NCBI GenBank assembly: GCA_963662335.2
Contig: CAXXVD010000001.1
Span: 64,001 to 128,000 of the forward strand
Origin: Chloroflexota bacterium
GTDB lineage: Bacteria; Chloroflexota; UBA11872; VXOZ01
DNA length: 64,000 nt
Direction of reading: 5' to 3'
The translations under genes and the position numbers were made by a program. Each line of letters begins with the position of its first letter. Position 1 is the stretch's first letter. Shown in pieces: positions 32,490 through 45,660 of this stretch. The notes beneath the pieces were generated by a model. That model did no database searches. It was not told the DNA's origin and saw nothing but the letters and a program-made list of their open reading frames with translations.

Positions 32490-32645
32490 CTGTGCATACC
32501 TCCTTCTGCATGCCGGCCCCGCAATTTGCACGGGACAGGCCTTTCGCCGCAACAAGGGACACCGCGCCTGGAGTTGCCAGGCGCTCTTAACGAAAACAGG
32601 CGTGCTGCGGATTCAGCACGCCCAGAATTTGCAGGCTCAGCAGTG

Positions 32646-32738
32646 CATTCCCTCCGCAGGTATTACCCTGATCAGGTGCAAGGGTTCGAGGCCGTACGCG
32701 CGCCTCATCTCAGCCCGGACTCCCGGGCTCCCCTATCA
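32646..32738 (-). ncRNA. TPP (thi-box) riboswitch
   Basis: Minus strand GGGGAGCCCGGGAGTCCGGGCTGAGA...GAACCCTTGCACCTGATCAGGGTAATACCTGCGGAGGGAA; all hallmark TPP segments present. Confidence 0.95.
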
Positions 32739-32766
32739 CGCCGCTCTTCAGTTGTCCAACGCCGTA

Positions 32767-41136: not shown

Positions 41137-42087
41137 ATGGTAAACGGTGACATCAAGATTCTCTCCGGCCTGGCCAACGTCCCATTGGCCGCCCAGATTG
41201 CCGACCTGCTGGGCACCGGCCTCTGCGACGTCAGCATCGAAGAGGCGCCGGATTCCGAGACCCTCGTAATGGTGAATGAGAGCGTGCGCGGCTGCGACGT
41301 CTACGTGGTGCAGACCACGTCCGCGCCCGTGAACGACAACCTGATACAACTGCTCCTGATGAGCGACGCCCTGCGCCGGGCCTCGGCCAAGCGCATCACC
41401 GCCGTCATACCGTACTACGGCTACTCCCGCCAGGAACGGATGGCCCACGGCCGCGAACCAATCAGCGCCAAGGTGGTGGCGGACATGCTCCAGGCCGCCG
41501 GCGTAGACCGCATTGTGCTCACCGACATCCACGCGCCGGCCATGCAGGGCTTCTTCAACATCCCCTTCGAAACGCTCTCCGCCGTGCCGCTCATCATCGA
41601 CTACCTGAAGCAGCAGGACCTCACGGATGCCGTCGTCGTCGCGCCCGACGTGGGCCGCGCCAAGCTGGCGGAAAAGTACGCCGAACGCCTGGGCGTGCCG
41701 CTGGCGCTGATCCACAAGGCCCGCGAATCCGCCACTACGTCGCGCATCGTTGGCATGATCGGCGAACTCAAGGGCAAGAACCCAATCATCATCGACGACA
41801 TCATCACCACCGGCGGCACCATCGTCGAGACCGCCCACGCCGTGATCAATGCCGGCGCGCAGCCCCGGCTGCGCCTGGCCGCCGTCCACGGCCTGCTGGC
41901 CGGCGACGCGCCGGACCGCCTGCATCAAGACTTCATTCAGGAGGTGATTCTGACCGATACCGTGCACGTGCCGGCCGACAAGCGCACGCCCAACATGTCC
42001 ATACTCTCCGTGGCCCAACTCTTTGCCGAAGCCATCCACCGCGTGCACAACGAAGATTCGGTAAGCGGCCTCTACCTCCTGACGTGA
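41137..42087 (+). CDS. prs: ribose-phosphate pyrophosphokinase
   Basis: ESVRG.DVY, DALRRASA, PYYGYSRQ, DIHA..QGFF, APDVG, IIDDIITTGGT. Confidence 0.95.
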   Translation: MVNGDIKILSGLANVPLAAQIADLLGTGLCDVSIEEAPDSETLVMVNESVRGCDVYVVQTTSAPVNDNLIQLLLMSDALRRASAKRITAVIPYYGYSRQERMAHGREPISAKVVADMLQAAGVDRIVLTDIHAPAMQGFFNIPFETLSAVPLIIDYLKQQDLTDAVVVAPDVGRAKLAEKYAERLGVPLALIHKARESATTSRIVGMIGELKGKNPIIIDDIITTGGTIVETAHAVINAGAQPRLRLAAVHGLLAGDAPDRLHQDFIQEVILTDTVHVPADKRTPNMSILSVAQLFAEAIHRVHNEDSVSGLYLLT

Positions 42088-42118
42088 GGCCGGGCTCTAC
42101 CTCCTGACGTGAGGCCGG
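42070..42118. repeat. 24-bp direct duplication of the prs 3' end
   Basis: CTCTACCTCCTGACGTGAGGCCGG at 42070-42093 and 42095-42118. Confidence 0.9.
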
Positions 42119-42160
42119 CCGCGCCGCCGCCGCGAGCGCGCTGCGCCTGACACATGGGCT

Positions 42161-42469
42161 TGCAAATGTCATTCCGAGCGCAGCGAGGAATCTAATGCTG
42201 CTGCTGCTGCTGCTGCTCGTGCAGTGCCGTACTCTAGATTCCTCACTTCGTTCCACCGGCGGCATGCAAATGTCATTCCGAGCGCAGCGAGGAATCTAGA
42301 GACGCTGATTGCGCAGGGCCGTACTCTAGATTCCTCACTTCGCTCCACCGGCGGCATGCAAATGTCATTCCGAGCGCAGCGAGGAATCTAGAGACGCTGA
42401 TTGTGCAGGGCTGTACTCTAGATTCCGCGAACAGGGTTCGACACTTCGCTGCGCTCCGTTCGGAATGAC
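42161..42469. repeat. tandem array of three TGTCATTCCGAGCGCAGCGAGGAATCT hairpin elements (BIME-like)
   Basis: Units start at 42161, 42265 and 42357; first loop holds (TGC)7 at 42196-42216. Confidence 0.9.
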
Positions 42470-42634
42470 GCGTGAAGTCAGTTCTGGAAAACATGCCCCC
42501 GTCGGCCCGCCCGCGCCCCGCCGGCGGCAGTAAACCGCGACCGGTTGTAGGCGCGCGCACAGATAAATGTCCCGCATCCGGTATACTAGGACTAGAGCCG
42601 CCAAGACGCGCGTTGCAAGAGGAGGTTGCGCGGC

Positions 42635-43372
42635 ATGATACTCGAGGTTGGCATTGCCTTCGGCGCCGGCGTTCTCTCCTTCCTCTCACCCTGCTTTCTG
42701 CCGCTGGTGCCCGCCTATCTGGTCTATCTCGGCGGCCGCCACGTCAACGCGGTGCGCCACGATCAGCCGGCCCAGCGCGCCGTCATCATCAATGCGCTCG
42801 CCTTCATTCTCGGCTTTGGCACGATCTTCGTCGCGCTGGGCGTTGCCATCACGTTCGTCGGCCTGGCTTTTCAGCAGGGCTTGCCGACAATGCGGCTCGT
42901 GGGCGGCGCGCTGCTGGTCGTCTTTGGCTTGAGTTTTCTTGGGTTCCTGCGCATTCCCTGGCTGCAGCAGATCCTGCAGCGTGAGGTCTCGCTCCGCAAT
43001 ACGCCCCTGGGGCGCATCGACACCGAAAAGACCGGCCCGCCCACGTCGTTCTTGATTGGCCTCGTGTTCGGCACCGGCTGGACGCCGTGCGTGGGGCCGA
43101 TTCTTTCCGGGATTTTGCTCCAGGCCTCCGGCTCCGGCACCGTGCTCCAGGGCGGCATTCTGCTGGCAATCTACGCCGCCGGTATGGGCCTGCCGTTTCT
43201 TGCAATGGCGGTGGCGATCGAGCGCGCTAGCGCGGTCCTGAACTGGCTCAAGTCACACATGCTCGTGGTAGAGCGGGCGAGCGGGGTCTTCTTGATACTC
43301 ATGGGCATCGCGGTCGCGTCCAATTTCCTCGCGTACGTCAGCAGTATTCTCGGATTGTATTCGTTAGGGTAG
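42635..43372 (+). CDS. ccdA: CcdA/DsbD-beta transmembrane disulfide reductase
   Basis: AGVLSFLSPC..PLVPAY and GWTPCVGPIL catalytic Cys motifs; multi-TM; RBS GAGGAGG. Confidence 0.93.
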   Translation: MILEVGIAFGAGVLSFLSPCFLPLVPAYLVYLGGRHVNAVRHDQPAQRAVIINALAFILGFGTIFVALGVAITFVGLAFQQGLPTMRLVGGALLVVFGLSFLGFLRIPWLQQILQREVSLRNTPLGRIDTEKTGPPTSFLIGLVFGTGWTPCVGPILSGILLQASGSGTVLQGGILLAIYAAGMGLPFLAMAVAIERASAVLNWLKSHMLVVERASGVFLILMGIAVASNFLAYVSSILGLYSLG

Positions 43373-43483
43373 GCGCCCGAGACGACCGCGAGCCACAGCC
43401 CGCCTACAGAGGTGAAGAGCGCCAATGCCGGCGCGAGGATATACGTCATTCACAGGACGACTGCTATGAAGAGGAGGAAGGCA

Positions 43484-44140
43484 ATGCAACGGAGACGCCT
43501 ACTGTCACTGCTGTTCGCCGGCGCGTCCGCCACCGCCCTGGCGGCCTGCGGCGGCGGGTCGGACGAGACGGATGCGGCGGAAGAAGAGACTGCCGGCTCC
43601 GCGCAGGGGTCCGCAGCGGAGCCTACCGCGGCCCCAAAACAGGCGGAGATTCCCCCAACCCCCGCGCCCACCGCGGCGCCGGAACTGGACTTGCCCATGC
43701 TGGGCAAAGCGCCCGAAATCAACCTCGACACGTGGTTCAATTCCGAGCCAATTACGATGGCCAGCCTGGAGGGCAAGGCCGCGGCCCTGGTGGTCTTCTG
43801 GACCTACACCTGACCGGTGTGCCGCAGCGAAGTCCCCAGTTTGGTGGACCTCTTCAATACCTATCACGACGATAGGTTCAAGCTCATCACCGTGCACTTC
43901 CCGTATGCCGGCTCATCCCTGGACGCGGCGAAGATCAAGGAGCAAGCGGACAATCTTGGCGTCACCTATCCCGTTGTCGTCGACAACGACCTCTCGCTTT
44001 GGAATGCCTACGGCAACCGCGTGTTCCCGTCCTTCTACGGCATCGACCGGCAGGGCAACATCCGCTTTGCCAAGTTCGGCGGCGGCGACGGCATGGAAGC
44101 CGTTTTCGAAGCGGTGAAGAAACTCAAGGAGTTTGGCTAG
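43484..44140 (+). CDS. TlpA/redoxin-like thioredoxin-fold lipoprotein, predicted selenoprotein (UxxC; TGA at 43811-43813 read as Sec)
   Basis: ORFs 43412-43813 and 43817-44140 are in one frame: ..LVVFWTYT-TGA-PVCRSEVPSL..YPVVVDND..W..YGNRVFPSFYGIDRQGNIR; RR signal and LAAC lipobox; RBS GAGGAGG. Confidence 0.88.
43829..43855 (+). promoter_or_regulatory. candidate bacterial SECIS hairpin
   Basis: GAA-GTCC-CCA-[GTT]-TGG-(T)-GGAC-(CTC)-TTC; apical loop starts with G, 25 nt after the TGA; single bulged U. Confidence 0.65.
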
Positions 44141-44231
44141 CGGGTTAGAGCCACCTGCCCTGGCAAGTGTTGGTTCGATTGTGTGTCCGTTCGCGGGGCG
44201 ACTGCTGCGCTGCGGACGGACAGTCATTTAA

Positions 44232-44243
44232 CCCCCCCCCCCC
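44232..44243. repeat. C12 homopolymer tract
   Basis: TTTAA-C12-TTAAA in the intergenic region upstream of the fucosidase. Confidence 0.85.
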
Positions 44244-44358
44244 TTAAACTCTCGCGCAGCCAGTAACTCGTGTTTCCCCCGGCATTGCCTCAGCCGTTAC
44301 GCGCCGCCTGTGCTAGGCTTGTGAGAACGGTTGCCAACACAGCAAAGGAGCGCATGGA

Positions 44359-45660
44359 ATGGACACCCAAAGTCTTCCCCAGCCCGCGCCGACGCCGGGC
44401 AATACCGCCTGGTGGACCCACGACCGTTTCGGCCTCTTCATCCACTGGGGCATCTACGCCCTGGCCGGCCGCCACGAGTGGGTGAAGAAATATGAAGAGA
44501 TCAGCGACGCGGACTACCAGCCGTACTTCGACCACTTCGATCCCGATCTCTACGACCCGGCGGAATGGGCGCGCGCGGCGCGGCAGGCCGGCATGAGGTA
44601 CGTCGTCCTTACCAGCAAGCACCACGACGGCTTCTGCCTGTGGGACAGCCAACTCACCGGCTACAAAGCCACCAACACGCCCGCCAAGCGCGACCTGCTG
44701 CGGCCCTTTGTCGAAGCCTTTCGCGCCGAGGGGCTAAAAGTGGGGTTCTACTACTCGCTCATCGACTGGCATCACCCTGAGTTTCCCGTGGACGGGGTGC
44801 ATCCCCAGGCCAACGACCTGGCGTTCCGGGAAGCTACCAAAGACCGCGACGTGCGCAAATACGCGGAGTATCTTCACGGCCAAGTGCGCGAAATCCTGAC
44901 CATGTTCGGTACCATCGACCTGCTCTGGCTCGACTTCTCGTATTCGCAGCAGGACTATGGCTGGAGCAGGGGCAAAGGCAAGGACGACTGGCAGAGCGAG
45001 GAACTCATCGCGATGGTGCGCGAAATAAACCCCGACATCATCATCAACAACCGCAGCGAAATCGAGCAGGACTTCCACACGCCGGAACAGTTCATCCCGC
45101 CCAGTTGGCTGCACGTGGACGGCAAGCCGGTGAACTGGGAGGCCTGCCAGACCCTGAACGGCTCCTGGGGCTACCACCGCGACAACCTGGACTGGAAGTC
45201 GCCAACGCTGCTGGTGCAGATGCTGATCGACTGCGTTTCGAAAGGCGGCAACATGCTCTTGAACGTCGGCCCTACGGCCCGCGGCCAGTTCGATCCCCGC
45301 GCCCAGGCGACGCTCGGCGCAATCGGGGGCTGGATGCGCCGGCACGGGCGCGCGATCTACGGCTGCACGCAGGCGCCGTTCACGCCCCCACGAGATTGCC
45401 GCTACACGTACAACCCCGAAACGAACCGGCTCTACCTGCACGTGCTCGCCTGGCCGCTGAAGTACCTGCACCTACCCGGCCTGCGCGGCCGCGTGCGCTA
45501 CGCCCAACTGCTGCACGACGGCTCGGAAGTCAAGACTTTGGACTTCACCCAACACCACCGCTACCCCAGCGGCGGCGAAGACCTGCTCACGCTGGAACTG
45601 CCCATCCAGATGCCTGACAATCTTGCGCCGGTGGTTGAACTCTTCTTGAACGACAGATAG
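44359..45660 (+). CDS. alpha-L-fucosidase (GH29)
   Basis: FGLFIHWGIY, TSKHHDGFCLWDS, YYSLIDW, LWLD, WEACQT...SWGY, NMLLNVGP. Confidence 0.93.
   Translation: MDTQSLPQPAPTPGNTAWWTHDRFGLFIHWGIYALAGRHEWVKKYEEISDADYQPYFDHFDPDLYDPAEWARAARQAGMRYVVLTSKHHDGFCLWDSQLTGYKATNTPAKRDLLRPFVEAFRAEGLKVGFYYSLIDWHHPEFPVDGVHPQANDLAFREATKDRDVRKYAEYLHGQVREILTMFGTIDLLWLDFSYSQQDYGWSRGKGKDDWQSEELIAMVREINPDIIINNRSEIEQDFHTPEQFIPPSWLHVDGKPVNWEACQTLNGSWGYHRDNLDWKSPTLLVQMLIDCVSKGGNMLLNVGPTARGQFDPRAQATLGAIGGWMRRHGRAIYGCTQAPFTPPRDCRYTYNPETNRLYLHVLAWPLKYLHLPGLRGRVRYAQLLHDGSEVKTLDFTQHHRYPSGGEDLLTLELPIQMPDNLAPVVELFLNDR

Follow-up and report, generated by a model that had tools for sequence, protein, structure and literature searches.

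A predicted lipid-anchored selenocysteine redoxin encoded beside ccdA in a Chloroflexota bacterium

Gene and reading frame

A 64,000-nucleotide stretch of the genome of a Chloroflexota bacterium (assembly GCA_963662335.2, contig CAXXVD010000001.1, positions 64,001 to 128,000; hereafter the window) was analysed, with the focus on the gene of a thioredoxin-fold protein, a redoxin, which lies directly downstream of ccdA and is interrupted by one TGA codon. The plus-strand frame opens with ATG at 43484 and closes with TAG at 44138-44140, TGA 43811-43813 being its sole interruption. An open reading frame (ORF) list made with translation table 11 splits the gene into 43412..43813 and 43817..44140. 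When TGA is translated as selenocysteine (Sec, U), the product has 218 residues, starting with MQRRRLLSLLFAGASATALAAC, followed by an Ala/Glu/Pro/Thr-rich stretch and a domain in which U110 lies within FWTYT-U-PVC-RSEVP (FWTYT-U-PVC, residues 105-113). The initial annotation, made from the letters of the window, had already read the two ORFs as one frame joined by this TGA, and its coordinates, the length of 218 aa, the assignment of the TGA to codon 110 and the residues that it quoted are all correct. It had also anticipated that standard annotation would split the gene. Indeed, the public protein collection contains no full-length Sec form, but only fragments of 119-121 aa with 58-78% identity, while Cys forms are found at 30-39% identity. 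The features of the gene and of the functionally related genes in the window are collected in Table 1.

Table 1. Positions of the redoxin gene, its predicted elements and related genes in the window.
Feature	Coordinates	Strand	Evidence
Complete selenoprotein gene (predicted), 218 codons + TAG	43484..44140	+	Frame; Pfam AhpC-TSA, Redoxin
Shine-Dalgarno-like GGAGG	43473..43477	+	Read from sequence; 6 nt 5' of ATG
Predicted signal peptide, MQRRR n-region, lipobox L-A-A-C (Cys22)	43484..43549	+	Aligned genus N-termini
Ala/Glu/Pro/Thr-rich linker, residues 23-69, predicted disordered	43550..43690	+	Model pLDDT, variability, dN/dS
Thioredoxin-fold catalytic domain (predicted), residues 70-218	43691..44137	+	Model, Foldseek, phmmer
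TGA, putative selenocysteine codon 110, first position of U-P-V-C	43811..43813	+	Homologue alignment
TGC, Cys113, predicted resolving residue of UxxC	43820..43822	+	At least 90% conserved; first turn of model helix 111-127
SECIS-like hairpin GUCCCCA-GUU-UGG(U)GGAC, bulged U 43845	43832..43849	+	Fold; pairing in homologues
ccdA, CcdA/DsbD-type transmembrane thiol-electron transporter, 248 aa	42626..43372	+	PF02683 DsbD_TM 2.4e-19, 70 bits
selB, selenocysteine-specific elongation factor, 623 aa	33548..35419	-	TIGR00475 381.2 bits vs 242.25, model 3-579 of 581

Conservation of the TGA codon

Homologues that read through the TGA were searched for in 60 related genomes and in the window's own, with a cut at E<=1e-42; the genus is represented by 17 genomes. 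An in-frame TGA is present in all 47 genus matches, which fall into three paralogue sets, share 44-81% identity with the query and include one copy with a second TGA. Since the codon is kept in every one of these close homologues, its conservation is above chance. The closest set (a-type, 65-81% identity) was found in 16 of the 17 genomes and not in G014, an assembly of 69% completeness. A second, convergent copy (b, 56-73% identity) occurs in 14/17 genomes and is missing from this genome, G011 and G014, and the c-type (44-50% identity) is present in all 17. The c-type copy of this genome (L056, C1:156669-157106, minus strand) lies outside the window; it is 48% identical to the query, reads FWTYG-U-INC and has the hairpin AUCCCC-GGUCU-GG(U)GGAU, and no ccdA was found within 1.5 kb of it. 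The copy with two TGA codons is the a-type gene of G004 (L034), in which the second TGA replaces the invariant Trp of G-W-F-N-S. It may stem from an error in sequencing or a recent nonsense mutation, or the copy may be a pseudogene; G004 also has an intact b copy.

The extracted loci gave 32 aligned genus sequences, and all 32 share a single TGA column. The same column is occupied by the first Cys of CxxC in 13 of 13 homologues from other families of the same class (FWT[YF]xC[IY]NC), in 14 of the 16 further Cys forms of the phylum whose motif was printed, and, by alignment with the Protein Data Bank (PDB), in solved DipZ (first Cys of S-C-I-N-C). A wider sample of 401 genomes of the phylum yielded 90 with a match at E<=1e-18, a tally that includes Cys-type matches in G216 and G303, two unpublished genomes used nowhere else. 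Distant Sec forms were recovered from seven genomes belonging to four other families of the phylum; each has one TGA, 7/7 at the same column (FWTY[GT]-U-[IY]NC). The proposal of the initial annotation that the TGA takes the position of the nucleophilic Cys of CxxC therefore holds, as the column contains TGA or Cys in the homologues.

The ratio of nonsynonymous to synonymous substitution rates (dN/dS) was calculated for the query against 15 a-labelled rows of the alignment. For residues 111-218, after the TGA, it is 0.11-0.26 at a dS of 0.7-1.4; for residues 70-109, before the TGA, it is 0.04-0.17, with one pair saturated. The linker has a higher dN/dS than the catalytic domain and varies in length and sequence among orthologues. 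The segment after the TGA is as constrained as the segment before it. A decaying C-terminal half, which the initial annotation had named as a possible objection, was thus not found; both flanks of the TGA are under purifying selection.

The second objection named there, a misread Cys codon, was addressed with the contigs of three sequencing runs covering 43300-44141 (word depth 31, 27 and 15.6). No difference was observed at 43811-43813 in any of them, and one of the three contig sets belongs to a variant strain that has 19 other differences and keeps the TGA. The same contigs differ in a run of 12 C at 44232-44243, between the redoxin and fucosidase genes, which is 1 base shorter in run X1 and 6 bases shorter in contigs of runs X2 and X3; this may reflect a genuine difference in length or an assembly error at the homopolymer.

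Selenocysteine machinery and genetic code

The initial annotation had placed selB in the window on the minus strand, as borne out by the TIGR00475 match (Table 1), and had pointed to selA, selD and selC as genes to be sought in the genome; all of them are present. The selC gene scores 67.8 bits (cut-off 47) and was typed by ARAGORN as tRNA-SeC with the anticodon TCA (UCA). The selA match (562 bits) is above the curated cut-off, and so is that of selD (380 bits; L014, C1:382996-383925 of this genome, G000, plus strand). The selD frame contains one in-frame TGA, and selenophosphate synthetase SelD is itself probably a selenoprotein. TGA also serves as the terminator of 17 of the 52 window ORFs of at least 300 aa, including prs and selB. 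As TGA closes ordinary genes of the window, there is no genome-wide recoding of this codon.

Two side observations concern the same machinery. A thiamine pyrophosphate (TPP) riboswitch (RF00059, 62.8 bits, over the gathering score) lies at 32631-32744 on the minus strand, about 800 nt from the 3' end of selB; it is the sole Rfam match in the window at gathering thresholds. Elsewhere in the genome, a redoxin-like frame (L059, G000:C5:322282-322638, plus strand) reads MWASW-U-RC at an in-frame TGA and continues into a long C-terminal tail, the open frame measuring 429 aa. It may belong to the 'WAxxU.C' selenoprotein type, and other families of the class have comparable matches, 500-547 aa long and each with a single TGA.

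A SECIS-like hairpin downstream of the TGA

A hairpin resembling a selenocysteine insertion sequence (SECIS) starts 18 nt after the UGA and presents a GUU loop. In bSECISearch, the distance from UGA to loop is reportedly limited to roughly 16-37 nt, with G/U in the apical loop. The stem-loop expected of SelB/SECIS-dependent selenoproteins is present here at 43832-43849. Across the 32 genus sequences (31 distinct rows), 94.5% of the stem cells are paired, compared with 28.6-62.7% after sliding of the partner strand. Of the distinct rows, 23 close the stem with A-U and the other 8 with G-C, none being unpaired at this place, and five of the seven stem pairs are invariant in the genus. The distant Sec forms (7/7) likewise form a hairpin at this distance from the UGA, with other stem sequences, namely AAUCCCG-AGUUUG-CGGGAUU, AUUCCUUC-GUU-GAAGGAAU, AUUCCCUC-GUU-GAGGGAAU and GCCGGCCU-UGA-AGGC(A)UGGC. 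That four other families place different stems here is stronger evidence of covariation than the pattern found within the genus.

Family, fold and active site

The redoxin protein matches the Pfam families PF00578 AhpC-TSA (4.4e-13, 49.7 bits, cut-off 26), PF08534 Redoxin (4.1e-12, 46.6 bits, cut-off 26.6) and PF13905 Thioredoxin_8 (28.4 bits, cut-off 27), and no NCBIfam model reached its cut-off. A phmmer search against PDB retrieved the C-terminal domain of DipZ (1.1e-23), YkuV (1.4e-21) and the Etrx lipoproteins (1e-8). An AlphaFold model was built on an alignment of 32 sequences (A2). Its predicted local distance difference test (pLDDT) score averages 85; it is 91-98 per 10-residue block from residue 71 onwards and 51-83 in the stretch 21-70, and the residues up to 73 form no secondary structure. 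U110 is located between strand 100-106 and helix 111-127 with pLDDT above 90. W106, T107, position 110 and P182 are invariant in A2. The model shows the features of a thioredoxin fold: the CxxC-type motif is placed where its first long helix begins, and a conserved Pro lies in the loop that precedes strand 3; in thioredoxin folds, a Pro at this place plays the cis-Pro role. The top Foldseek matches were DipZ-C (5cyy/2hyx), YkuV (2b5x), Etrx2 (2yp6/4hqz) and ResA (1st9), and the modelled fold is of the DipZ-C/YkuV/Etrx/ResA (TlpA-like) type.

Predicted export and the ccdA neighbourhood

All 32 aligned genus N-termini read M-[QRL]-R-R, then a hydrophobic stretch, then L-[AS]-A-C, with LAAC in 30 sequences and LSAC in two c-type copies. 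Lipoproteins generally have the lipobox pattern [LVI][ASTVI][GAS]C after a hydrophobic stretch. LspA is encoded in this genome (123.5 bits) and Lgt scores above its cut-off in 16/16 sister genomes. Lipidation and an extracytoplasmic location of the redoxin are most likely, judging from the signal peptide and lipobox. The initial annotation had described the product as a twin-arginine translocation (Tat) substrate and a lipoprotein. Its lipoprotein part is supported by the conserved L-[AS]-A-C and by LspA and Lgt; its Tat part is not, as the protein has a minimal RRx-hydrophobic n-region only. The Tat consensus is of the twin-arginine S/T-R-R-x-F-L-K type. No Tat-signal family was among the Pfam or NCBIfam matches of the protein, and TatC is present in the genome; export through Tat is neither supported nor excluded.

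The translation of ccdA, the gene directly upstream, contains both membrane Cys motifs (SPC and TPC). A ccdA homologue stands beside one redoxin copy in 15 of the 16 genus loci with an a-type copy (in L037 it is a 27-residue end piece), and within the fetched flank in 10 of 13 Cys-form loci of the same class. The other neighbours are apparently unrelated to redox processes, with a Mur ligase, Ddl and Prs encoded upstream and an alpha-L-fucosidase, a solute-binding protein and an aminotransferase downstream. A promoter scan of 42000-44500 returned no promoter-like site, and the plus-strand terminator-like sites in this interval fall inside ccdA and are uninformative about an operon.

The gene order in sister genomes is prs, ccdA, copy b, convergent copy a and fucosidase. 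This genome (42626-45660, compared with 1452-6668 of L071) and G011 have a single redoxin gene that takes the place and orientation of b and is of the a-type by sequence, which suggests that the inverted copies may have recombined before one of them was lost.

Evolution of the Sec and Cys forms

In a tree of 68 rows, the genus sequences (32 rows) group together (100/99); within this clade, a pairs with b (100/100) and c branches outside the pair. The single gene of this genome falls in the a clade (98/91) as sister to the copy of G011 (100/95). The Sec/Cys state requires at least three changes on the tree, two of which are forced by well-supported branches. Switching between Cys and Sec within thiol oxidoreductase selenoprotein families has already been described (PMC1794560).

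Two Cys forms of the family f12, L088 (G305) and its sister L089 (G359), stand beside Sec forms in the tree. L088 has kept the VIPSLKEW motif and an 8-bp stem at the SECIS position, with the loop CUU in place of GUU, and in L089 the stem is degraded. We infer that the hairpin of L088 may be a fossil SECIS left after a change from Sec to Cys. The Sec forms, the Cys forms and a Cys form with a putative leftover hairpin would constitute a natural series for the exchange of the two residues.

Weighing the evidence and the alternatives

The assignment of the TGA to Sec in the initial annotation is supported by the column of Cys or TGA, the conservation on both sides of it, the Sec machinery and the independent contigs, and we estimate a probability of about 0.9 that 43484-44140 encodes a genuine Sec-containing redoxin. 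It is likely, in addition, that the protein acts as a surface reductase fed by CcdA. From sequence data we infer the actual insertion of Sec, the lipidation and location of the product, the flow of electrons from CcdA and the reductase direction.

Several observations weigh against these interpretations. The three read sets come from one study and may include the source sample, and contigs, not raw reads, were compared. No RNA sequencing run was listed as containing the stretch, and run X5 (small share) gave no match to it. No matching SECIS model was found in Rfam, either in the whole window at gathering thresholds or in a permissive scan of 43700-43950. Covariation of the hairpin within the genus rests on one stem pair, because five of the seven pairs never vary, and this one coincides with a Val/Ile change and a synonymous Asp change. 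The register-specific folding energy has a median of -9.2 kcal/mol in 16 distinct Sec windows and -6.5 kcal/mol in 27 Cys windows with overlapping ranges, at p = 0.003, a value that is overstated since the rows are kin. Three Cys forms fold as strongly (L088, -13.1; L087, -12.3; L051, -10.4 kcal/mol). The energy in this register separates Sec from Cys forms poorly and is only moderately discriminating. Regarding export, neither PF01790 nor TIGR00544 detected Lgt in this five-contig assembly of 96% completeness, probably owing to an assembly gap. No gene of a potential client (msrAB, a cytochrome c maturation gene or a peroxiredoxin) lies near the redoxin locus, and the proposed reductase role and link to CcdA are drawn from homology and gene adjacency.

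Two further attempts were discarded. The folding energy of the whole region, tried as a discriminator, did not separate the forms (means of -11.9 kcal/mol for 33 Sec and -10.9 kcal/mol for 13 Cys sequences), and the permissive Rfam scan gave two chance snoRNA matches on the opposite strand.

The alternative that survives best accepts a genuine selenoprotein and assigns it a different function, that of a surface peroxidase or sulfenic-acid scavenger similar to peroxiredoxins or glutathione peroxidases instead of a reductase of client disulfides. Sec favours the reaction with peroxides, the best Pfam match is AhpC/TSA, and the 1-Cys peroxiredoxin AhpE appears at Foldseek ranks 49-50. However, the U-x-x-C motif is situated at the N-terminus of the helix, as in TlpA, ResA and DipZ, and not at the peroxiredoxin site; DipZ-C, YkuV, Etrx2 and ResA are closer, with E-values four to five orders better than that of AhpE; and a ccdA partner is typical of TlpA-like reductases. 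We consider a peroxidase improbable.

Read-through of the UGA with a residue other than Sec (Cys, Trp or Gly), be it through a suppressor tRNA or an altered code, is highly improbable. The inserted residue is not distinguishable computationally, the column is Cys in relatives, and Sec-like tRNA-Cys opal suppressors have reportedly been proposed in some bacteria. Yet TGA is an ordinary stop in the window, selA, selD, selB and tRNA-SeC with the matching anticodon are all present, and a SelB-type hairpin is found at the expected distance.

A pseudogene or a genuinely split gene, in which translation would end at codon 109 and the downstream ORF would be dead or separately made, is hardly credible. 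The two ORFs of table 11 and the short public fragments of close relatives speak for it; against it stand the single TGA column in 47/47 genus homologues and the seven distant Sec forms, the low downstream dN/dS at a dS of about 1, and the fact that a split would cut the thioredoxin fold between strand 100-106 and the active-site helix. Finally, a sequencing or assembly error of a TGC or TGT Cys codon, for which no specific support was found beyond the metagenomic origin of the assembly, is practically negligible, as the TGA recurs in 16 other genus assemblies with up to three paralogues each and the contigs of three runs agree.

Discussion

Returning to the Sec-containing redoxin as the preferred interpretation, the following mechanism is proposed. 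SelB and tRNA-Sec would decode UGA-110 as selenocysteine under the direction of the hairpin at 43832-43849. The predicted product combines a lipoprotein signal peptide with a disordered Ala/Glu/Pro linker and a thioredoxin-fold domain that has U110-P-V-C113 at the start of helix 111-127, and most likely hangs on the outer face of the membrane. There it would most likely be kept reduced by the CcdA protein encoded upstream, which in turn would be fed by cytoplasmic thioredoxin. The selenolate would react with disulfides or sulfenic acids of client proteins outside the cytoplasm, leaving a selenenylsulfide for C113 to resolve.

Bacterial selenoproteins of this kind are already known, and our finding does not change the understanding of how selenoproteins work. 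It adds a well-supported Sec redoxin, predicted to be exported and lipid-anchored, with a clear candidate for its electron donor. The gene is mis-annotated wherever it is found, with only fragments in the public collection and no NCBIfam model at cut-off, so that selenoproteome counts for these Chloroflexota are too low; a profile combined with the SECIS could repair dozens of gene calls. More tentatively, and with considerable doubt on our side, this might be the first described Sec branch of the DipZ-C/YkuV/Etrx group. The genus would then run a small surface redox system based on selenium, in which one CcdA supplies the two or three lipid-anchored U-x-x-C reductases of each genome, and the Sec form would have a history in the phylum long enough to account for the fossil SECIS in L088. 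If so, surface selenol chemistry would be a trait of the lineage and not a one-off recoding.

Comparison with known systems

The selenoprotein families concerned were reportedly first described in a 2004 study. Zhang et al. 2006 (PMC1794560) list 25 bacterial selenoprotein families, including a 'Prx-like thiol:disulfide oxidoreductase' with eight sequences and a 'thiol:disulfide interchange protein' family with three, and count three selenoproteins in Chloroflexi. A 2026 review (PMC13188914) lists the Prx-like thiol:disulfide oxidoreductase under PF00578 with UxxC or UxxU, next to several thioredoxin-like selenoproteins and a TlpA-family protein that contains UGC. The statement of the initial annotation that a membrane-anchored extracytoplasmic Sec-thioredoxin is uncommon was therefore too strong, as published catalogues already include PF00578 redoxins with UxxC and TlpA-family proteins with Sec. 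According to the BSepDB paper, Dehalococcoidia genomes are among the richest in selenoproteins; its main text does not include TlpA, Prx-like proteins or lipoproteins. In our literature search for a Sec form linked to CcdA or lipoproteins, none of the records listed joins selenocysteine with CcdA, and the supplements of BSepDB and other catalogues may list the family.

Compared by its published description only, the Prx-like thiol:disulfide oxidoreductase resembles the redoxin in its PF00578/PF08534 domain and in having Sec for the first Cys of a thioredoxin-fold CxxC, and the redoxin falls within the definition given for that family (PF00578 with UxxC or UxxU, PMC13188914). The branch described here differs in being nearest to DipZ-C/YkuV, in its predicted lipid anchor, long disordered linker and location beside ccdA, and in its two to three paralogues per genome in one Chloroflexota genus. 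NCBIfam NF041054, a curated selenoprotein model named 'ResA-like WAxxUGC motif-containing protein', shares the ResA-like redoxin domain and an active-site Sec (1.9e-07). Nevertheless, the redoxin is not a member of that family, given its score of 30.7 bits against a cut-off of 300, another motif (WTYT-U-PVC) and another length.

Mycobacterium tuberculosis DipZ-C (5cyy, 2hyx) and Bacillus subtilis YkuV (2b5x) are the best PDB matches of the redoxin in both sequence and fold. They share its active-site context FW-x-Y-x-C-x-x-C but use Cys where the redoxin has Sec. DipZ is a fusion with a CcdA-type membrane domain, whereas CcdA and the redoxin are encoded here by separate adjacent genes. DipZ also carries a further C-terminal domain that is absent from the redoxin; PF17991 is found in some Cys homologues in the database and not in the redoxin. 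Etrx1 and Etrx2 of Streptococcus pneumoniae (2yp6, 4hqz; PMC3914529) are lipid-anchored thioredoxin-fold proteins of the outer membrane face that work with CcdA. They occupy Foldseek ranks 8-9, with a sequence match of 1e-8 and only 23-24% identity to the redoxin, and unlike it they are Cys-based and encoded with their client MsrAB2 (PMC3914529), while the redoxin locus has no adjacent client gene. Taken together with the lipobox and the adjacent ccdA, the likeness to ResA/TlpA, DipZ and the pneumococcal Etrx lipoproteins makes a lipid-anchored extracytoplasmic reductase kept reduced by CcdA the most likely role of the redoxin.

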